A DNA stretch of 43,897 nt from positions 1 to 43,897 of the forward strand of contig CALSCO010000670.1 in assembly GCA_943704415.1 (NCBI GenBank), written 5' to 3'. Below the pieces are notes generated by a model, which made no database searches, was not told the DNA's origin, and saw nothing but the letters and a program-made list of their open reading frames with translations. Positions 1,153-43,897 of this stretch are shown here, in pieces. The first letter of the stretch is position 1. Each line of letters begins with the position of its first letter. Both the position numbers and the translations under genes were made by a program. The DNA comes from Parvularia atlantis (taxonomy: Eukaryota).

Positions 1153-1371
1153 ACGCTCACCGGGTAGATTTTGATCTATATACTGACTGCTACAGCTTAT
1201 ATAATATGGCGGGACTGGCAACCCCGCGCGCTCTTCGCGCGGCAGCACGCCGTCGCCGTCCGCGTCGCCCTCGCCAACTTCGGGCGCGTCCTCGGCCTGC
1301 TGCTCAGCCGCCGCTGTCGCCGTCGCACTCCTCGCAGTTGTGACCGCGCTGCTGTGACTACTGCGTGTGTA

Positions 1372-1628
1372 CCCCTGAGTACAAATTGGATGAGAAACAA
1401 CATTCAGTTCATTCACGTTCATTCAACATCCACAGGAAAGGAGTCAGTACCTGTCCGTGTTTCAACAGGAGCGCACCTTTTGCTTCGGGGTATAGGCCCT
1501 AGTTCAGAGCCCGATCCGGGTCGGACACGGTGTGCAATGTGTTCCTTGCCGGTGATCTTGTGAGTGAGGGAAGGCTGCACGAATGGTCAGCGCGCGATCG
1601 CCGGGCATGCCGGCGCGCCAGACAGACC
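1372..1628 (-). ncRNA. Putative Fanzor omega-RNA scaffold A; guide would be the flank starting at about 1371 and reading leftwards
   Basis: Lies between the Fanzor stop and the element end. Hairpins include GGGCUCU/AGGGCCU (1494-1512) and GGAUG/CAUCC (1388-1431). Conserved in the 43660 copy and homologous to 2340-2535. The 5' boundary is unknown. Confidence 0.7.
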
Positions 1629-1958
1629 TTAGTTGCCACGGCGGAAGGCGGCGGGTCGCTCAAGGCCGGGCATGTAGCACTTCCACAGGTAGGCGATGTT
1701 GCGCGCAGCGTTGACGTCCCTGTTCCACGACCACGAATGATTTACACTTTTGCAGTGTTTCGTGGAGTGAAGGGACGGGTGCTGGCGCATCGCGGAGTGA
1801 CACTGGCAGCACGTCGTCGCGTGCTCGAGCGAACGGTGGACGGACATCGTGACGGTCGAGTGCTTCGCCTCCGTCTCCTGCCAGTGGCCCTCCAAGGCAT
1901 CTGGCCCTCCTCCACCGCCGTCGCCGTCGTCCGGACCCTTCTTGCGCTTGGGCGGCAT
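1629..1958 (-). pseudogene. Internally deleted Fanzor ORF (109 aa): NLS plus N-terminal strand fused to Zn finger and RuvC-III
   Basis: MPPKRKK (NLS-like) ... HSTVTMSVHRSL | EHATTCCQCH ... HCKS ... WNRDVNAARNI ... ERPAAFRR. WNRDxNAAxNI is the TnpB/Fanzor RuvC-III signature. REC, most of WED and RuvC-I are absent. Confidence 0.88.
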
Positions 1959-2180
1959 TGGGCGCCGCGCTCGCGCTATGGCAGCTGACTCGGATGAAAA
2001 TGGTTTGTTGGAGTGATCCTTCGGGAGAGCGACGACGGCGTTTCGCCTGACACCTGGTCCGGCGAGCGGGTCTGGCCCACCCACCCACCCTCTTCTGTTC
2101 GTTTTTCAGTTGGTTGTTTTCTCGTAACTCATCTCTCTCTGTGTGTGTGGTCGAACCCGGATGGCTGAGAGCCACTTGAA

Positions 2181-2303
2181 CACTGCCAAAGTATCTGACA
2201 TTGGACGTGGAATGGCGACGTGAACGCTGCCCGCAACATCGCGTACCTGTTCAAGGCGCACATGGCGGGCCTCGAGCGACCTGCGGCCTTCCGGCGGGCA
2301 TGA
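2181..2303 (+). pseudogene. Second, divergent Fanzor C-terminal remnant (subfamily B), not in the ORF track
   Basis: Translation from 2181: HCQSI*HWTWNGDVNAARNIAYLFKAHMAGLERPAAFRRA*. It aligns with copy A (HCKSVNHSWSWNRDVNAARNIAYLWKCYMPGLERPAAFRRGN*) and has an in-frame stop at 2196. Confidence 0.88.
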
Positions 2304-2535
2304 TCTCAAGTTCGACATAAGCAAATTACTTGCGGGAAGGCACCCGGCCCGTGTATCGGGTTCTGAAAAAAGGACCTATACTTCGTAGCAGGTGCGTTCC
2401 GACGTTCGCTGCGCGCCATGCATGGCTCTGGCTGACGTGTCGCCCGCTCTGCACCCGATTGTTGAATCATGAATGGGCCCGGGCCTTGAACCGTTGCGTG
2501 AACGTGAATTGTTGCTTCTCATCGATTGTGTAGGG
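2304..2535 (+). ncRNA. Putative Fanzor omega-RNA scaffold B
   Basis: Follows the remnant's stop codon. Shares blocks with scaffold A (ATCGGGyTCTGAA..AGGrCCTATAC..AGGTGCGyTCC; TGAACGTGAAT..TTCTCATC) and ends GTAGGG|TA. Confidence 0.65.
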
Positions 2536-2550
2536 TAGGCAGCGAATGGC

Positions 2551-3300
2551 TTAGGAGGGGCCCGCAGCGACCAGCTTGACCACGCGGTCGCCGTGGTCAG
2601 ACACGACCTCGTCGTGCAGCACGCGCAGCCCCGCGCGCTCGACACTCGCCCGGAACGCGTCCTCGTACGTAACCGCACCAAAGTCGATTGTGGTGACATA
2701 CAGCAGCAGCGGCTTGATCGTCTCCATCAGCCACGAGCGCTCGCGCTGGAAGCTCTGCGTGAAGTAGATGACGCCTGCAAGACACTCGCCTCAGCCCCGC
2801 AACCCCCCCCCCCCCCCCCCCACGCGCGCGCGCACCCTCAGGCTTGAGCAGCGACACGGCGTGATGCAGCGTCCTCACGGGGTCCGGCAGCAGCATGAAA
2901 CTCCCGCTAAAGTACACGGCGTCGTACGGCCCGCCGTGGTGGTCCAGCTCAGACTCGCAGCGCGCCTCGACGTGCTCGCCCATGCCGGCGGCGGCGATCA
3001 GCTGCTGCGCACGCTCGACGTAGGCCGCGTCAATGTCGACACCGACAAAGTGCAGCCGCTGTCGCCGGATCATCTCGGCATGGGTCAGCAGCGCCGCGCC
3101 CGTCCCTGCGCCCGCGCATCAGCCGCGTCCCGAGCGTGCACCGCGAGCGCGCGCGCACCGATGCCCACGTCGAGCACGCGCGCGTTTATCGGCAGACGCG
3201 TGAGCACGCGCTCGTACCATGCCGCGGTCATGTGCACGATCGCCGCGTCGTATAGCCGCGCGCGCGTCGCACCCCACCACTCCCACAGCTGCTGCGCCAT
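2551..3300 (-). CDS. Class I SAM-dependent methyltransferase, uncharacterised; multi-exon
   Basis: RVLDVGIG motif I, FVGVDID, YDAVYFSGSFMLLPDP, LLKPEG|VIYFTQ; TAA at 2551-2553. Confidence 0.85.
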
Positions 3301-20019: not shown

Positions 20020-20119
20020 CGACGACGACCGTGTGATGCGCGCTTAGACGGTCGTGGTGTGGCACAGCGCGCGTGTGCGCGCGCGATCGACCACGTGGTC
20101 ACATAGACCTTCCATACGA

Positions 20120-22263
20120 ATGGCTGACGACCGTGAGAAGTCGCCGCTGCTCACCGGCGCCGAGGCCGCGCCCCGTGGGCTGAACGGCCGCGACCTGACG
20201 AGGGCTGACGTGCGCGACAAGTCGCCCCTGCTCGACGGCGCGGACGCCGAGGCCGCGCTCCGCGGGCCGCACGGGCTGGATCTGACCTGGGCCGCCGTCT
20301 CGCTCACGGTCACGACCGAGGGCGGGTGCGTGCGCCGGACGACGCGCACGATCGAGGTGCTGCAGGGCGTCTCGGGCCGCGCCCGCGCCGGCCAGACGCT
20401 GGCCGTGATGGGCCCGTCGGGCGCGGGCAAGTCGTCGCTGCTCAACATCCTCGCTGGCCGCACGAGGTGCTCCACCGGCACTATCGCCGTCAACGGCCAG
20501 CCCGTCGAGCCGGCCGTGCTGCAGAGCCTCTCTGTCTATGTCCAGCAGGATGACGTGCTCCTGGGCACGTTCACGCCGCGCGAGGTCATCACCTTCTCGG
20601 CGCGCCTGCGCCTGCCACGCTCGATGTCGCTCGCGGCCAAGCTCCTGCGCGTGCGCGAGCTCATCTCGAGCCTCGGCATCCAGCGCTGCGCCGACTCGCC
20701 CATCAAGGGCATCAGCGGCGGCGAGCGCAAGCGCACGAGCATCGGCGTCGAGCTCGTGACCGACCCGCAGCTGCTCTTCCTGGACGAGCCCACGTCGGGC
20801 CTGGACTCGAGCGCAGCCCTGTCGGTGATGACGCTCGTGACCGATCTCGCCGCCAAGGAGGGCCGCACCGTTGTCACGACCATCCACCAGCCCTCGTCCG
20901 AGATCTTTGGGCGGTTCCAGCGCCTGATGCTGATCAGCCTGGGCGAGGTCGCGTACGACGGGCCGGCCTCGAGCGCGCTCGACTACTTTGCCTCGATTGG
21001 CCTGCCCTGCCCGACCTACACCAACCCGGCCGACCACTTTATCAAGGCGCTCTCGGTCACGGCCGACCCGGCCACGGTCGAGCAGGTGCGCACTATCACG
21101 GGCCGGCTCCGCCAGCGCAAGGAAGTCGCGCTTGAGGACGAGGGCATGGACCAGTCGCCGCGCGTGACCGTCAACGGCGCCGCGGCCTCGGTCGACATGC
21201 TCCTGGCCAGCAAGCCGCAGCGCGCGTCGCTGCTCGAGGAGAGCACGCAGCTGGCCTGGCGCTCCCTGCGCAACTTCCTGCGTGAGCCGCTCACGTTCCA
21301 GGTGCGCTTGATCCAGACCGTGTTTGTGGCCCTGCTCGTGGCGTTGCTCTACTGGGATCTGGGCACAAACCAGGCGTCGATCTCGGACCGCACGGGGGTG
21401 CGTGCCAGTTCTGGCTCGTGCGCCCCCGGCTGACACGCGCGCGGCACACAGGCCATGTTTTTCATCGTCATCTCGATGAACTTTTCAAGCTCGATGTCGC
21501 TCGTGCTGGCCTGTACGTTGCGAAACGACCGCACGCGCGAACGCACGCTGACGCACGACCGCACGCAGTCCCGATCGAGCGCAAAGTATTCATGAGAGAG
21601 CAAGACAACAACATGTACAACGTCCTAACGTACTACCTCGGCAAGGTCGTGAGCGAGCTCCCGTTCCAGCTCATGTTCCCGCTCGTCTTTGGCGTGATCG
21701 TCTACTGGGCGGTCGGTTTCAGCACCGTGACCGCGACCAAGTTCCTCGTCTTCTACCTCGGCCTGCTTCTGCTCAGTCTGCTCGGCCAGTCCGTCGGCAT
21801 GTTCTTCGGCTGCATCCTCCCAACGCCCGAAGCCGCGATCCAGCTCACGCCGATGTACCAGACCGTCACCATGACCTTTGGCGGCTTCTTCGTCGCAATC
21901 GACTCGCTCCCCGTCTGGTTCGCGTGGCTCGCCTACCTCTCGCCCTACCGCTACGGCTTCGAGTTCCTGCTCGTGAACGAGTACACCGGGCTCGAGCTGT
22001 ACTGCGAGGAGGACGAGCTGCGCAACGGCGTGTGCCCGTTCACAGCCGGCGAGGCGCGCGCACGATCTCTGCGCCCCCGCACGCCTCGCCTGCTCACCCG
22101 CACGTACGCACAGGCTGTGCTAAAGGCGCAGGGCATCGAGAGCGACGACCTCGTCGACGGCGCCATCGCGCTCGCGGTCATGGCCGTCGGCTTCCACATC
22201 ATGGCCTACACAGCGCTGGCCTGGCAGGTCTACCGCCGGCGCACCACGACGCTGCGCGACTGA
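20120..22263 (+). CDS. ABCG (White-family) half transporter
   Basis: Walker A GPSGAGKSS, signature ISGGERKR, Walker B LFLDEPTSGLD, TIHQP, NPAD, followed by an ABC2 membrane domain (NBD-TMD order). Confidence 0.95.
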
Positions 22264-22422
22264 TTGCTGTGCTGCGTGGGGAACTTGTCGCGACGTTGAA
22301 CACCGCAAACGTGCGACCTTTGCTTGCTGCGCACGCCGCAGCGCCCATCCATTATTCTTTCCTCGTCCCTTTGTGTTGCCAGTGTGTACAAGCACGGACA
22401 AGAGACACACGGCGATCAGCGA

Positions 22423-23000
22423 TCAGCCGTACATGGGGTCGTACGCGGGCTCAGAGTCGCGCTGCACCTCCGGCAGCGCGTTGAGCCGCCGCCGCGTGCG
22501 CTCGCGCTCGTACTCGGGGTCGTCGGTGGGCAGCTCGAGCCGGCACGCCGGGCACGTGTTGTGCACACTCAGCCACGGCCGCACGCACTCGTCGTGGAAC
22601 AGGTGCCGGCACGGCAGGCGCATCGCGGGCGTGCCCGGCGCGAACGCGTCCATGCAGACTGTGCACTCGGACCCGTCGGCCGCGTTCACGAGCGGCAGGC
22701 TGCCCACAAACTCGCGCGACGCCGGCCGCGCCCGCCCGTCGTCTGCGCCGCCCAGGCCGCCCCGCTCGCCCATGAGCCTGAGCACGAGCTGGCCGATCTG
22801 CGCGGGGGCGACGTGCGGCCCTATCTCGGCGTGCAGCTGCCTGCCGCCCGCGGGCCCGCGTCAGCTGCCGCGCTCGCTGCATCCGCGGGGATGGCACACC
22901 GCAGCAGCGCCCGCCCGTCGCCGCCCAGCCGGCTCGGCCGTGCCGCCGACGAGGTGGACGACGAGGACGAGAGGAACGCGCGCACGCTCGCATCAGCCAT
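22423..23000 (-). CDS. RING-H2 E3 ligase, RNF181-like
   Basis: PASREFV.SLP, CTVC..LPCRHLFHDECVRPWL..HNTCPACRLELPTDDPEYE; one intron inferred; ATG at 23000. Confidence 0.85.
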
Positions 23001-23088
23001 CCTCCCACGTGGCCCACCTGACACGAAATCGGCCACTTTGCACCAGGGCGCCCGGCCACGTGGCTCGCGCAAAACGCTGAGCGACTCG

Positions 23089-25352
23089 ATGGGCCGCGCC
23101 AAGAAGTTTGTCGACAAGAAGCGCGCGGCGACCTTCGCGGTCGTGCACCGGAGCCAGCGCGACCCGCTGCTTGCCGACACCGACGCGTCGGCGCTCGTGC
23201 TCGTGCCGGTTGAGCTGCCGGGCTCGGCGCGCGCGTCGCGGGCCGCGCAGAACGGGCGTGGGCGGTTCATCAGCGGCAACGAGGACTTTTTCGACAACGT
23301 GTCGCAGGTCTCGTACGACCGCGACGACGGCGACGACGACGATGACGACGACGGCGAGCGCGGCAGCGGCGATGACGTGCCGTCCGACAGCGGGAGCGAT
23401 CGCACGGCCGGCAAGCCCGAGGTACAGCGTCGGCGACGGACGCGCCCGCCCGCGAATGAGTGCGTGCAAACCCCTCCCTCCTCCCCCCCTCCGCTACCAT
23501 GGCTAGTCAGGACGCCGCGCGCTCGCACCGTCGCCGGACGACCGTTACGCTCATGGAAGAGCATACCCACGGGCCGCCCCCCTGCACGCTCCGCGCGCCC
23601 GCACATGTGCCGTCGCCTCGGGGGTTCGCGCTCTTGTTCTAAGACGCCCCCCTCCAAGACGGCACGCGGCCGCGGGTGGGGCGGCCCGGCCCTTCGGGGC
23701 GCCCAGAGAGTCGAGGCACGCCATCTAGCTCGCCGCGTGACTCATAGTGGTCGCGCCCCACATCGCAGGAACGCGGGCGAGGCGGCCAAGTACGGCATCA
23801 TGCTTGACGACACCCAGTACGACTACACCCAGCACCTGAAGGAAATCGGCACAGATCCCATGGGCGTGTTCATCGCCGCGCCCGCCGCCAGCACCGCCGG
23901 CGACGCCGCGCGGCCGCTCAAGGGTAAGGAGCGCGACATGGTCGAGTTCCGCGCCCCGTCCGGCCGCACGATCGCCCTGCCGCGCGTCGCCTTCGCCTCG
24001 GAGATGGAGGAGGACGTAGGCATCCTCAACCTGGTGCGCGCTGGCTCGGCTCGAACACGTACGGCTGAGCCTGCCTGCGCCGCCAGGCCGCGCCCACGAC
24101 CGGGCCGCAGCCGCAGCTGGGCGCCGACGTGCTCGAGGTGCTCGAGGCGCTCGAGGACGACGCGTACGTGGGCGAGCTCGACGACGACTTTCTTGCAGAC
24201 CTGGACGCGTCGGGTGCGTGTGCCGGCATCGTGTGGCTGCTTGTCTCTCACCGTGCGGCGTGCAGGCGACGATGACGTGGACGGCAACGACGACGACGAC
24301 GACGACTACGAGGACGTGAACACAGACGACAGCGACTGGGAGGACCACGATCGCTTCAACGAGAAGCCCGTGCGGCCTGAGGACTTGGCCGAGCGCAAGA
24401 CGGCGCAGCTCACGCAGTACTCGATGACGTCGTCGGTCCTTCCGCGCACGGAGGACCTGCAGCTGCTGGACAACCGCTTCGAGAAGGTGTACCGCGCCGG
24501 GGGCGGACGGGCGGCGCTGCTGACGCTTCTGCTGGCCGCAGATGATGGAGCAGTACGACGCAACCGAGATCGGCGAGCTGGACGCGGACGACCCGAGTGT
24601 GCGCGGCGTGCGGCGGGTGGACGCGCTCGAGGATGTGCTGGACGAGTTCTTGCGCGCGGAAGGGACGCAGACGGGGCTCAAGGGCGTGGTCGACAGCTCG
24701 GAGCGCTTGCTGATCAAGCATGGCCTGATCAAGCCCTCGCCGGCCGCGCTCGAGCAGATCCGCAGGGACAACGAGCGTGCGCGGCGCGCCGTGGCCGAGG
24801 ACAACGCGGGCGAGCTGCGGCCGGTTGAGCGCGAGCGCATCGTGACGGAGGAGGAGCGCGAGGAGCACAACTGGGACTGCGAGTCGGTGCTGACGACGTA
24901 CTCGAACCGCGAGAATCACCCGGTGATGATCCGCGAGCAGCGCCGTGCGCGCATCGTTGTCAACCGGCGCGGCTTCCCGGTCGTTGTCGGCGGCGGCGGC
25001 GGCGGCGGCGACAGCGCAGTGACCGACGGCGCGGCGACGGCGAGCGCGCCAGAGACGGACGAGGAGGACGAGGAACAACAGGAGCAGCGTGGGCCAGACG
25101 GCACGCCGCCGCCCAATCGCCGGCCGCGCAACGAGACGCCCGAGGAGCGGCGGCTGCGCAAGCAGGCCGTAAAGGAGCACCGCCGGGTGCGCGCGCCTGG
25201 CCTTCTCGCCCGCGCGTCGCCTGACTGGGGCCGCGTGCGCCGCGCAGCACCGACGCATCGAGAAGAAGACGACCAAGGCGTTGTTCGCGTCTGAGAAGCA
25301 GCGGCAGGAGCGTGAGCGGCGCTCTGATCAGCAGCAAGTCTTGCACCTGTAG
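23089..25352 (+). CDS. LTV1: 40S ribosome biogenesis factor LTV1
   Basis: KKFVDKK.A.TF.VVHRSQRDPL; GEAAKYGI..DD..YDY.QHLK; YSMTSS; WDCESVLTTYSN..NHP; ETPEERR.RKQAVK. Confidence 0.95.
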
Positions 25353-25737
25353 AACCTTGTGACAGCATGCCCGTTGTTTGCATTAGGAAGCTGAAAGGGC
25401 GAGGGCGCCGATGGGCACGTCGCTGCTCGCGCCGCGGCACGACCGACGCTCGGAAGCTCGCATGTGCGCGCCCGCGCCTGGGGGGTGCGTGTGCTGGCCG
25501 CAGCCTACGTCCTGCTAACTGTGCCACGAGCGCGTGCAGCTCGGCCGACGCCGCGACGAGGCCGGCCATGTGAAGCGCGTCGCGGGCACCGTCTGGTGCG
25601 TCAACCGCCGGTGCAAGGCGTACGGCTTCGGCCTTAGCCGCGGGTGCGTGGCACACGGCCCGGCGCTGGAACATCGTCTTCCGGCTCCGCCGCCGTGCTC
25701 ACGGTAGTGGTGACGGGGCTGTCACTAATTGTTTTGG

Positions 25738-27256
25738 ATGGGTGGGGGTGGGTCCAAGCCGCGCCGGCGCGTGCCGGAGCTGCCGGCCGAGTACACGTCG
25801 CCGGACGCGCTCGCGCCCGAGATCGCGCCAAAGCCGCAGCCACAACAACAACAACAGCAGCAGCAGCCACCGCCCATCCTGCACCCTAAGCCGCGCCGCG
25901 CTGGCCCGCCGCCCGTCGCGCCAAAGCCCAACAAGTTCTCAACGCACAACCTCGACCTCGGGTGGATCGTGCAGCGCGAGGTGCCCGTGGCGGCGGCGGC
26001 GGCGGCGACGGTGGCGCACGAGGGCGAGGACGCCGCACCAGGAGCGCCAACCACGCCCTCAGCAGCACCGACCACGCCAGCAGCGCCGCGCAAGCCCGTC
26101 GGCGTCGCGCTGCTGCCGCCCGTCGCGCCCGGCGGGGTCGCGCTGCGGCCGACGCCCGCAGCCGGCTCGAGCGCGACCATGGGCAAGCTGCCGCCGGGCG
26201 ACACCGGGCTGCGCAGCAGCAGCAGCCCCGAGGCGGGCGCCGGCAAGTCGGCCACGCTGGGCGACGCGCTGCGCCGAGGCCGGTCGATGGTCGTCGAGGC
26301 CGGGGAGCACGACGCCGGCGCATCGGCGCCCTCGCTGGCTGCGTCTGCGTCGTCGCTCGCGCCGTCATCGTCGTCGTCGCCGGCTCCGGAGCGCGCCGCC
26401 ACGCCCTTTGACGATCTGCGCTCCGACGCGATGCCGCTCTCGCCCTCGCCCAAGAAGGACATCGCGCGCCTGCAGAAGGGCCGCAAGCGCCCGCCCAGCA
26501 AGGCCACGCGCGTGTACCTGCTCGACGAGACGTACAAGGCCATCCCGCTGTCAACCGCGGCCACGGCCAAGGACGTGCTGACAGAGCTGATCGTGCGTGC
26601 GCTTCGTGGCCGGCGTGCAGAGCGGCTCACGGCGCTCGCGCGGCGTGCAGGAGAAGGCACACGTGGAGGAGAAGGACGCGCCCAGCTACTGCCTGTACGA
26701 GGTCGACGCCGACAGCGCGGCGCAGCGCGAGCTGGCCGACGACGAGCTGCCGCTCGCGGTCGTCCTCGGCTGGCCCGAGACGATCAAGGCCAACATGCGT
26801 CTCTACTTCAAGCCAAAGACCAAGACCGCCGCCGCCGCCGCGCGCAAGGTCGGCAAGGCCACCCTCAAGCGTCAGAAGGCCGTCCAGCCCCTTCTCGTGC
26901 GCCGCACTGCGTACAAGGGTGTGGTCGCCCTGCCGGACGAGCGCGAGCTCGAGGTGCCCGTCACGGCCGAGACGACCGCGGGCGACCTGGTCGAGCTCGT
27001 GGTCAAGAGCCTCAAGCTCAAGGGCAAGACGCCGTGGCAGCTGTTTGAGGTGCAGGGCGCGGACGAGCTCAAGCTGCTGGCCGAGTCGGCGAGCGCGTTT
27101 GGTGCGTCTCTGCGGCCCGCATGCCCTGCCCTGACGCGTCCGCATGCCCTGCTCTGACACGCCCGCATACCCTGCCCTGACACGCCCGCAGACGTGTTGC
27201 TGGGCTGGCAGGGCCGCCCTGACTACAAGTTTGCGATCAAGCCGGCAGCGGCGTAG
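25738..27256 (+). CDS. Putatively myristoylated Pro-rich protein with two C-terminal Ras-association (ubiquitin-like) domains
   Basis: MGGGGS start; PPPVAPKP; RVYLLDETYKAI..TAKDVL..YCLYEV..RELADDELPL.V..GW; second copy TTAGDLV..WQLFEV..DVLLGW. Confidence 0.7.
27118..27186. repeat. Intronic 23-bp tandem repeat, 3 units
   Basis: CGCATGCCCTGCCCTGACGCGTC / CGCATGCCCTGCTCTGACACGCC / CGCATACCCTGCCCTGACACGCC, then the CGCAG acceptor. Confidence 0.9.
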
Positions 27257-27344
27257 GTGCCGCGCGTCGTAACGTTGTTGTCTGTCGCCGCAGCCGGATG
27301 CATCCACACCGCAGCCGGTCCGGTTCGCCACCCATCAAGTACAG

Positions 27345-30300
27345 TCACACGCCACGCTTCTTCAGCTCCTTGCGCAGCCGGTCCACCTCCATCCCCATCG
27401 AGTCGATCACGCGCTGCAGCTCCATGTTCTTCATGTGGTACTCCTCGACCTGGTGCTGCAGTTTGCGGTTGGTCTCGGTCAGCTCGACCTGCTGCGCCGT
27501 GGGCTTGCGCTTGAGGATGTTGGAGATCGGGCTGTGCGCACATCAGCCACGTCGCGGCTCTCTGTGCACATTGCACCTCATCAGGTCGGCACCGGTCAGC
27601 TCGCCGCTGGCGGCTGGCGCTGCCCCTGCCGACGCAGCCGCTGCGCACACAGCCACCGCTCAGTACGCGCGACCCCGCCGTAACAAAGACGCACGCAAAA
27701 TGCCCGTCCGCTCGCGCATCAAAAAGTCCTGGATGATCTTGGCCTTGGCCTCGTTGTCCTGCTGCAGCACCTTGACGTCGCTGCTGAGCAGCCGTACCTT
27801 CTCTTCAAGCATCGCCGCGCGCCCATTGTCGCCGCCGCGCTGCGCATGCACCGTCAGCACCGACACAAAGCGCTGCTGCTCCTGCCACGCACGTCGTCGC
27901 CGTGCTCGGCCCCGTCGCGCGCGTGCGGCCGCGGCGGCAGGTTGGGCGGCTCCAGCGAGTCGGACGAGCTGCCAAAGTTGAGGCGCGACCCGCGGCTCAG
28001 GCGCTCGACCTCCTTCTTCAGGTCCTTGACCTGGAGCGCGCGTGAGTGAACGAAGCGGCAGCGACGCCGCACCATCTGCATCTGCTTGCGCTCGGCGATC
28101 TTGCGCTCGTTCTGCGCGTCCTCCAGCTGCGCCCGCAGCTCGTCGGCCTCCTTCTCGGCCACCTCGAGGCTGTGCGACGCCTCGGCCAGCTTGGCCTGCG
28201 CCGCCGTGAGCTCGGCGCGCACGTCCTCCATCTTTGTCGCGCGTCGTCAGCTCGCCGCATGTGCGCACACGAAGCGCACCTCCTTGGCGTGGCGCTCCTT
28301 GCGCTTGTCGTGGCGCTGCTGCAGGTCGTCGCGCGCAGCCGTGACCTCGTCCAGCTTGCTCTGCGCGCGGGGTTACCTCAATCGTCACGCCCGGCACCAC
28401 GACGCACCTGCAGCTCCTTCACCTGGCCCTGGGTGTCGCTCAGCGTGGTCGACAGCTGCGGCGGCGGCGGCGAGTCAGCAGGCAGTCCACAGCTGCACAC
28501 GCGTGCACCTGGTCGCGCTCGACCTTGAAGCCCTCGACTTTGCTGTTGAGCGTGAGCCGCAGCTGCTCCGACTCCTGCTTCAGCAGCTCGTTCAGGCGCT
28601 GGATCTCGGCCATCTCTTTGAGGTGCTTGTTGATGAGCTGCGCGGGAGGATCAGCAGCGCACACGCCGTGCCCGCGCCGCACGCACCTCGTCCTTGTCGC
28701 GAGACAGCTGGTCGACACTCTGCTTGCGGCTCTCGGCCAGCTGCTCCGTCTTGCCCAGCTGCTCCGACAGGGCATTGAGACGGTCTGCGCAGGGCGGTGA
28801 CGATGAGATGCTGTGGCGCCCTCCGTGGGCTGATCGCGCCACCGGTCAACTGCTTGTTCTCGTCCGTGAGCGAGTTGACGCGCTTGTTGAGCGCCTCCAT
28901 CTGCGTCGTCAGCGACTTGAGGTTCTCCTTCATCTGCTTGGCCTGGTTCGTCTTGACACCCACCGCGCGGTGTCGGCATGGGCGCATGGCCGACGGAGCC
29001 GCGGCTCACGCACCCTAATCTCGACCGCCTCCTTCGCCAGCGCCAGCTCCTTGTCGAGCGCCGCCGCGCGCGTCTCGCTCTGCTTGCGCGCCTCCTCGGT
29101 CTGCTTCAGCTGCGCCTCCAGCTCGCGCGAGTGGTCGGCCTTGACAGGCACGGCGGGTGCCGGTGCGGTCGCGAGCTGTGCGCGCATGCGTCATTGTCAG
29201 TCGTGCGCCCAGTCAGCGCAGCGGACGCACCTGCTTTCTGAGCTTTTGCAGCTCGTCGTTCTGCACACACGCACAACCGGTCAGACGGCACGGCCCAACG
29301 CGCACGCACGCCACTGCACCTTCATGATCATGTCCTCCTCGTGGTGCCGCTTGAGCTCCGACAGCTTGGTGTCGACGCTGTGCTTGAGCGCCGAGTTGGC
29401 CTCCTCGAGTGCGCGAACCTGCGCCTGCACCCGCGCGACGTCTCAGTCAGTCTTTGACCTACACGGCCCGCGCACCTTGGCGGTCTCGAGCTGCTTCTCA
29501 AGCATCGGGTCGCGCGCCTGGCGCGGTCGACGTCAACGAAAGAGGCACACGGCGCAGCGCGGCGCACCGGCGCGGCGTCCGCGCTCTGCGCGTCGATCGA
29601 CGACGTCACGGCCTCGTGCAGCCTCTGCGCGACCGTCTGCGGCGCAGCGTCAGCGGGGCGCGCGCACAGCCCGCAAAGCGCTTGACCTGGTCGGCGGCCT
29701 CGGCCAGGGCTTCGTCGATCAGCTCGTGCTGGTACGCGCCGATGTCAGCACGCGCACGGGACACGCGCCGCCACCGCTGCCGCACCAGCCGGTGCAGCCG
29801 CTCGGATGAGAGCGCGAAGGTGCTCGTGCTTCCGTTGGTGGCGGGCGACGCCACGGCGGCGGCCTGCAGCTGCTCCTGCAGCTTGCGCAGCTCCTGCGCA
29901 TGCTGCTCCTCCGCGGCCTTGAGGCGCGCCTCGAGCTCGTCCTGGATCGTGCTCATGTGGCGCATGTTTTCGCGCATCGCCTGGATCTGCGTGGCGGCGC
30001 GGTCAAGAGGGCGGACGGATGCCGCTGCGCCGTGCCTGCGAGTCCTTCTCGCTGTACTCGCGCTTCATGTTCTTGTTCTCGAGCAGGATCGCGCGCAGGT
30101 CCGCCTCGCTGTGCGTTGCCGCCGCCGCGTTCGGCTCGCCCGCGGCCGCGGAAGGCGCGGGCGGGTGCGCAGGGCTTGCCGTGGTCGACTTGGCGCCGCC
30201 GATCGAGTTGTCGAGCGCGGCCGCGCCCTTCTTGGCCTTGTCGAGCAGGTTGCCGAAGCTGAAGCCGCCGGTGCTCTTGGCCGCGCCCTGGGCGGGCGAC

Positions 30301-43542: not shown

Positions 43543-43659
43543 TGAAGGGGGCTTGTTTACGATCTGGTGTACAAAGCCGTGCCCGCGCGCGCGCGCGCAC
43601 GCGCCCGATGATGCCGCCGCAGCTGCGATGAACGAAGTCGCGGTCATGTATGGGGCTTA

Positions 43660-43897
43660 CCCCTGAGTACAAAATGGATGAGAAACAACATTCACTTCAT
43701 TCACGTTCAACATCCACAGGAAAGGAGTCAGTACCTGTCCGTGTTTCAAAAGGAGCGCACCATTGCTTCGGGGTATAGGCCCTAGTTCAGAGCCCGATCC
43801 GGGTCGGGCACGGTGTGCAATGTGTTCCTTGCCGGTGATCTTGTGAGTGAGGGAAGGCTGCACGAATGGTCAGCGCGCGATCGCCGGGCATGCCGGC
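43660..43897 (-). mobile_element. Right end and omega-RNA scaffold of another Fanzor element, same subfamily as copy A; runs off the window
   Basis: Aligns with 1372-1614 with about 5 substitutions and 5 gapped nt; same TA|CCCCTGAGTAC boundary; unrelated flank. Confidence 0.92.

Follow-up and report, generated by a model that had tools for sequence, protein, structure and literature searches.

Probable one-off join of two Fanzor1 element ends, with a candidate intron in their putative omega-RNA templates, in Parvularia atlantis

Our analysis of a 43,897-nt stretch of Parvularia atlantis DNA (GenBank contig CALSCO010000670.1; hereafter the window) points to a 1.16-kb block in which the ends of two different Fanzor1 elements, termed A and B, were probably joined head to head as a one-off. 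A belongs to a many-copy family and has lost the interior of its gene; B, a 5'-truncated and decayed right end from a sister subfamily, is likely the older of the two. The right ends of both still close on TA, and a functional nuclease is encoded by neither. The locus, as read here, is ordinary debris of an active Fanzor1 family; what sets the family apart is that its 3' ends are fixed at TA and that its omega-RNA may harbour an intron.

Materials and methods

Depth, flank and joint data were taken from assembled contigs of four (X1 to X4) of nine public sequencing runs listed, of which X1 matches the window best and is possibly the very sample behind the window assembly; X2 and X4 are RNA-type runs. 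Contig depth is not copy number, rare variants are dropped from contigs, and contigs are able to show the presence of an allele, not its absence. The contig evidence comprises the 24 loose ends listed out of 105, with 344 further pieces lying outside the listing. Among metagenome loci, 38 relatives were found, and the 16 closest were compared. The Fanzor1 fold (REC/WED/RuvC/TNB) was tested on the full-length relative P0005, not on A or B. MAFFT applied to whole tails put their cores out of register; the hairpin and terminal stem described below were anchored by hand and not by automatic consensus.

Results

The contig that makes up the window is eukaryotic and 70% GC; it holds ordinary genes with short GT-AG introns, TA is scarce in it (10 per kb), and no transposase family was detected among the 73 of 254 open reading frames scanned. 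DDX31 was used in trying to place the host, and its best matches were 29-41% identical. Both genes flanking the A+B block are on the minus strand: one encodes a short-chain dehydrogenase (weak Pfam match), the other a methyltransferase, the stop codon of which occupies 2551-2553. A preliminary description had reported two Fanzor remnants pointing away from each other with TA on both outer sides, and both observations stand: a minus-strand reading frame (1629-1958) and a plus-strand coding piece (2181-2303) face outward, with TA at 1370-1371 and 2536-2537. The coding ends of A and B are 77-80% alike, in inverted orientation.

Element A (1370 to ~2174, minus strand) is an internally deleted Fanzor1 gene in which the deletion is in frame. 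Direct reading and contig ends place a TA at its right end (1370..1371) in all A copies seen, and loose ends and pieces in X1-X4 start at 1369/1370, marking the right-end border. Inward from this TA lies a 257-nt non-coding tail (1372..1628), a candidate omega-RNA template, followed by a 109-residue reading frame (1629..1958) in which a Fanzor1 N-terminus (residues 1-47, 1958-1818) is joined in frame to a zinc finger/RuvC-III end (1814-1632). The N-terminal part matches the N-termini of P0009, P0004 and P0005, while identity over the C-terminal part reaches 86% with P0003 and 65% with P0004; the Pfam match to Cas12f1-like_TNB (E 5.5e-4) falls under the curated cut-off. A had been taken for a plain Fanzor remnant; its pieces are indeed Fanzor, but the fusion of an N-terminus to the C-terminal end makes it something other than a plain remnant. 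Approximately 550 residues are removed, including two catalytic motifs (RuvC-I and RuvC-II), and the product is therefore not a nuclease. Nesting of A within an intact B is contradicted by a tblastn search, which gave no Fanzor sequence to the left of 1629.

The 5' non-coding part of A (1959..2174, minus strand) is also multi-copy and carries a 5-bp hairpin at 2162-2174. Multi-copy contigs (X1 record 5, X3 record 21) depart from the window sequence after 2174, and neither a TA nor a terminal repeat is present there, so that A has a TA at its right end only. The possibility that A copies end near 2124 with a TA of their own was rejected, given that these contigs continue to 2174 and the shared sequence thus reaches ~2174. 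As possible counterparts of the asymmetric terminal inverted repeats and 5' hairpin of Helitron2-type Fanzor1, A offers the 2162-2174 hairpin and a 10-11-nt inverted match between the right-end motif (1392-1401) and 2113-2123; the match sits 50 nt inward of the boundary, and chance may account for it.

In X1, depth over the A right end (1367-1690) is 20,030-27,692 and drops stepwise to 1,634 at 2096-2176; flank depth is ~100-320 in most bins, making the right end ~100-fold deeper than its flanks. By read depth, which is not copy number, the family would hold ~100 young non-autonomous copies. A-type right ends are joined to other flanks in all four runs and at window position 43658, where a second A right end (A2, 43658-43897, minus strand) is 96% identical, bounded by TA, set in another flank and runs off the window; the two window copies were resolved as different sequences. 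The first copy has private variants at 1670, 1816, 1976, 2102 and 2132 that are absent from the high-depth contigs, and a second truncated A-type end (~360 nt) occurs in X2 record 11. In an X3 derivative, different upstream DNA is also joined at 1814, a breakpoint that may have been reused by several deletion subfamilies. A2 faces a RING-finger gene on the plus strand, from whose stop it is separated by ~115 nt; the B right end likewise faces the methyltransferase stop. Insertions of these elements may favour 3' UTRs.

Element B (~2174-2537, plus strand) is a 5'-truncated, decayed right end of a sister Fanzor1 subfamily. Its C-terminal coding piece (2181..2303, ~40 codons) has an in-frame TGA at 2196-2198 and reads NGD in place of NRD, with G replacing the R ahead of the RuvC-III D that is present in all 70 regex-matched family proteins. 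The stop codon and this replacement make B look older than A. Since A lacks the first two RuvC motifs, and B lacks both and carries NGD, the two are non-autonomous. The B tail (2304..2535, plus strand) is 232 nt long and ends at a TA (2536..2537) 13 nt from the methyltransferase stop. In X1, B and its flank form one contig (record 6, 2169-2812, depth 127.8), which alone covers bins 2258-2338 and 2501-2743; a single further contig resembles the B tail (record 7, 81 nt, 4 mismatches, 6 gaps).

In X2, one contig of the spliced methyltransferase transcript (record 14) continues antisense into the B end, to 2496. Depth in the same run over the last 80 nt of A (1367-1447) is 191, ten times that further in (19), and host transcripts may commonly end inside these right ends. 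A 6.4-kb X2 contig (record 13, depth 158) ends in a third subfamily, which matches window 2181-2241, is 85% like the B coding piece and provides a lead to the living relatives of B.

Assignment of the family to Fanzor1 follows from the modelled fold of P0005 (pLDDT 88.9), which is far closer to SpuFz1 (E 3e-16 to 1e-15), PpFz1 (1e-13) and GtFz1 (4e-11) than to TnpB/Fanzor2 (~1e-3); the best 7 PDB matches are all Fanzor1. A sequence search of solved structures with P0004 returned 0 matches, the family being placed by fold search only, and the full-length relatives share just 16-18% identity with SpuFz1. These relatives carry the RuvC D-E-D residues, with E just before the zinc finger (FDPG; DE..TSK.C; RD.N). 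Scans of viral and prokaryote sequences yielded distant relatives only (22-35% and 27-43%), and tail core patterns had 0 matches in viral contigs. Across the related loci, right ends are exact and end at TA, flanks vary, and 5' sides are truncated, inverted or different: L008-L010 is a 5'-truncated copy, L006 has a 5' inversion, and L003 and L005 differ in their 5' ends. The inverted DNA of L006 (1-455) amounts to ~330 nt of Fanzor coding sequence at the 5' side of a truncated copy.

The two tails had been described as homologous, and this is confirmed (local score 39 against a shuffle maximum of 29; 0/500 shuffles), with the likeness confined to two blocks, ~1462-1530 vs 2335-2404 (the core) and the final ~45 nt, between which the tails do not align. 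What had been presented as imperfect terminal inverted repeats are merely two homologous right ends. Against shuffles, A-L001 homology is clear (0/500) and A-L013 marginal (12/500), while B-L001 (95/500), A-L002 (190/500) and B-L013 (214/500) are not significant.

Whole-tail folding of A and B was no better than that of shuffled sequence (z -0.98 and -0.22), Rfam gave 0 matches, and RNAalifold on the cores, in an alignment without the element ends, yielded no net covariation (term +0.31) and missed the hairpin. In the hand-anchored comparison, A, A2, B, L001 and L008 all have a 6-7-bp hairpin, in which base pairs have changed in a compensating way, from C-G to U-A in B and from G-C to A-U in L001/L008. 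The 7-bp SL1-like hairpin of A occupies 1494..1512 (minus strand), and that of B 2358-2377 (plus strand). Right after the hairpin, an arm starting with TA is predicted to form a stem with the five bases that end the element, the terminal TA included: in A, the arm TACCCC (1487..1492, minus strand) is predicted from minimum free energy and a cross-pairing matrix to pair with 1370-1375, which would place the TA at 1370-1371 inside the terminal omega-RNA stem, and in B the 5' arm lies at 2379-2383 (plus strand). Hairpin and terminal stem pairing extends to A, A2, B, L001, L008 and L002, with compensating changes between families. In all six tails, the 5' arm pairs with its own end at least as well as with the end of any other family (5/5 within a group vs 3-4 across groups; L002, 4 vs 3-4).

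These tails, structured and ending at TA, agree with the earlier proposal that each right end could template an omega-RNA with a flank-derived guide; A and B are both plausible templates on sequence grounds, usable in trans in the manner of ghost loci. In the omega-RNA architecture set out in PMC13565253, the guide lies in the flank past the right end, a position that for A would correspond to 1350..1369 (minus strand). Contigs in X2 and X4 cross A-type ends into the flanks; strand and RNA start or end are unreadable from such contigs.

The loop of the terminal stem is bordered by splice-like words, raising the possibility of a spliceosomal intron. In A, a 102-nt loop (1375..1476, minus strand) has the borders GTGCGC and CAG, and in B a 142-nt loop (2392..2533, plus strand) has GTGCGT and TAG; that of L001 is 167 nt, all three running from GT[AG]CG to YAG. 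Counted from the stem arm, the donor-like word comes 13-16 nt later in five tails (A, A2, B, L001 and L008), and YAG lies 2-3 nt ahead of the terminal TA in A, B, L001 and L008. A donor-like word also follows the hairpin in L013 and is missing in L002-type tails; in a scan of 13 further loci, it was present in L013 and L015 and absent in 11. The likeness between A and L001 ends just past the GT. Three of three host introns read from spliced X2 contigs begin G|GTGCGC, the same border as that of A. Donor and host usage agree here (GTG, 3/3) and in L008 (GTA in 3/3 predicted thioredoxin introns of its host), and are unclear in L013, where coding introns are mostly GTA, with GTACGT a predicted donor in the coding region, and the tail has GTG. 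The base before the GT is identical to the last base of the candidate intron, so that removing the loop leaves the terminal stem intact; in silico, this removal shortens the distance from hairpin to TA to 36-41 nt in five tails, versus 138-205 nt unspliced. A scaffold of this shortened kind in the A and B families would be in line with the 75-90 nt of SpuFz1 and PpFz1 RNAs.

On the other side, spliced tail RNA was found in 0 of the 2 RNA-type runs, both borders are crossed by unspliced contigs in X2 and in X4, and depth shows no step at the A intron border, with equal values at 1466 and 1488. This unspliced picture carries no readable strand and could be produced by DNA or by antisense host read-through, which into these right ends is evident in X2. 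Words of the GT[AG]CG type turn up roughly once per kb on each strand, and common descent explains their sharing among these tails; L002-type tails lack them, the region beyond SL1 is known to vary freely (PMC11423790), the donor-like word can alternatively pair with an upstream GCACC (B, z -3.29), and the folds of in-silico spliced tails are not significant (z -1.81, -0.63 and -1.49). We put forward only tentatively, and at somewhat worse than even chances, that in this Fanzor1 clade the spliceosome matures the guide RNA by removing a 102-167-nt GT-AG intron located in the terminal-stem loop. Separately, ~63 nt after the A stop (window 1564-1628) are missing from an X2 variant and from L001/L006/L008; the reading frame of these relatives continues through the hairpins, and its TAA stop, ~10 nt ahead of the donor-like GT, is part of the sequence making up the terminal-stem arm.

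The A/B junction falls at 2174..2180 (plus strand), with an X2 loose end placed before 2181. Sequence comparison suggests that 2174-2180 matches the upstream sequence of a B-like relative, given a 16-nt loss in B; with these bases read as B's own upstream DNA (one 30-nt X2 consensus), A and B would directly adjoin. An 8/9-nt likeness between 2161-2169 and the B flank was treated as chance, and a long target duplication was rejected, the longest words shared between flanks being 5-6 nt.

Discussion

Of the readings weighed for this locus, we favour as probable the one-off join of two separate element ends; the alternative already raised in the preliminary description, two independent adjacent insertions, fits the data better than a composite unit, with B decayed and the B end at flank depth. 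B would have come first, at a TA just beyond the methyltransferase stop. A would have joined later via its right end at another TA, its variable 5' side being resolved against B at 2174, in an event that would have removed the upstream part of B along with any host DNA between the two; as no pre-insertion allele was seen, we infer this loss of intervening DNA. A point against two events is that outer TAs without host DNA between A and B also fit a single one, unrepeated and two-ended, in which both ends of one cut TA site captured right ends (from an A donor and a B donor), the copied strands met at 2174, and the TA was duplicated, the empty site being a simple one-TA join. The exact right ends and the 5' inversion of the relative L006 speak for such an event as well, but a near-identical B donor would then be expected, and none covers 2258-2338 or 2501-2537 in X1; moreover, B is more decayed than A, and since a TA follows every right end of the family, two TAs are expected without any duplication. 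We consider it unlikely.

Slightly less likely again is that the join was made by assembly, the repeated 5' part of A having been wrongly linked to a unique contig that begins with B. Misassembly retains this share of probability because no contig listed for X1-X4 bridges 2174/2175 with 31 nt per side, and none listed spans the whole A+B stretch. Against it, the window copy has private variants missing from the high-depth contigs, copies 1 and 2 are resolved apart, and X1 record 6, starting at 2169, reaches 6 nt into the A side. Still further down, at a very low probability, we place the composite first envisaged for this locus, in which two right ends would together form a 1.16-kb mobile unit that recurs and makes two guides against its own empty site. 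Its outer ends are homologous inverted sequences bounded by TA, the predicted stems are kept in both tails, and the 5' region of A between the tails might conceivably drive both strands. However, the B end is at single depth in X1 and continuous with its one flank, other A copies diverge at 2174 (X1, X3), and the empty-site joint (1369-2538) is absent from the five joints listed across the four runs, contigs showing presence only. An end pattern fitting both A and B had 0 matches in metagenome and viral contigs, which is weak evidence, since the pattern missed A alone as well. Within the contig data of the four runs, the A family is amplified and the B end is not, the A+B pair does not recur, and the 1.16-kb block itself does not move.

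Under the favoured join of two separate ends, each tail would template an omega-RNA composed of the hairpin, a terminal stem closing on the TA and a flank-derived guide, and these RNAs could be loaded in trans by full-length Fanzor1 made elsewhere, like ghost omega-RNAs. The solved Fanzor1 omega-RNA has SL1 (7 bp) followed by SL2 next to the guide (PMC11423790), an arrangement resembled by the 7-bp hairpin and guide-adjacent stem of the A family, and the region past SL1 is described there as varying freely. In insect-virus Fanzor1, fixed end bases are paired in the last stem (10.1101/2023.08.09.552727), as is predicted here for the fixed TA. Unlike in SpuFz1, PpFz1 and GtFz1, the terminal stem here encloses 102-167 extra nt with GT..AG borders, and neither A nor B has an intact protein.

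Ghost Spu-1 loci (PMC10432273) are many copies that keep the omega-RNA region without a working gene and are possible trans guides. A and B resemble them in this respect, whereas ghost Spu-1 has 30-nt inverted repeats at both ends, A has no left repeat, and A, unlike ghost Spu-1, keeps an in-frame mini-ORF of N- and C-terminal parts. Terminal inverted repeats with TA at both ends, of the Tc1-mariner or ghost Spu-1 type, were not found in A. In the Chlamydomonas Fanzor1 elements CRe-1/2/3, copies are often truncated at 5' or deleted internally, 3' ends are over-abundant, and extra DNA has been captured at 5' ends (PMC3627910); the A family likewise displays a 3' depth gradient, 5'-truncated relatives and an internal deletion. 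CRe-1/2/3 are of the Helitron2 type, with a 7-19-bp target duplication for truncated copies and an upstream TTTT, both lacking here; the 3' side here has a fixed TA, and no RepHel was seen. No clear Helitron2-type 3' DNA hairpin was present at the two ends (folds of -0.4 and -0.3 kcal/mol). Finally, IStrons are bacterial self-splicing group I introns in which the whole element is removed (PMC13565253). Splice-type signals and the omega-RNA share the right end in both cases, but the candidate here is a spliceosomal intron inside the omega-RNA, the removal of which would keep the terminal stem.

Should the intron be real, it would constitute a eukaryote-specific route of omega-RNA maturation that is absent from the literature searched, in which the element keeps a long subterminal DNA end and its mature RNA is nevertheless compact, with a uniform 36-41 nt from hairpin to TA, followed by the guide. 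Flank-derived guides would then be supplied, under host splicing control, by hundreds of copies with dead protein genes, A and B among them, and omega-RNA scaffold prediction for tool mining would change, as the mature RNA would differ from the genomic tail. Neither splicing of a Fanzor guide RNA nor a composite of two right ends was described in the literature searched. Independently of the intron, the family is tractable for studying how Fanzor1 elements without clear inverted repeats move and for asking whether ghost guides act in trans.

Several minor observations concern neighbouring DNA and relatives. An AT-rich, TATA-like patch lies at window 1175-1207, and short plus-strand frames with hydrophobic stretches end near 1357; from these letters, 1196-1360 is possibly a small gene. 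In L001 (1995-2215), a Fanzor1 right end immediately adjoins a TnpB/Fanzor2-like gene at its 3' part, within AT-rich DNA, and looks like an insertion into that gene. L015 holds a distant Fanzor-like gene on a contig with 102-nt, 95% identical inverted ends (1-102 and 2957-3058). In L005 (5594-5625), a strong DNA hairpin occurs ~20-45 nt upstream of the Fanzor start, after short C-rich tandem repeats; it is missing from the 5'-shorter copy L003 and may mark the true left end.
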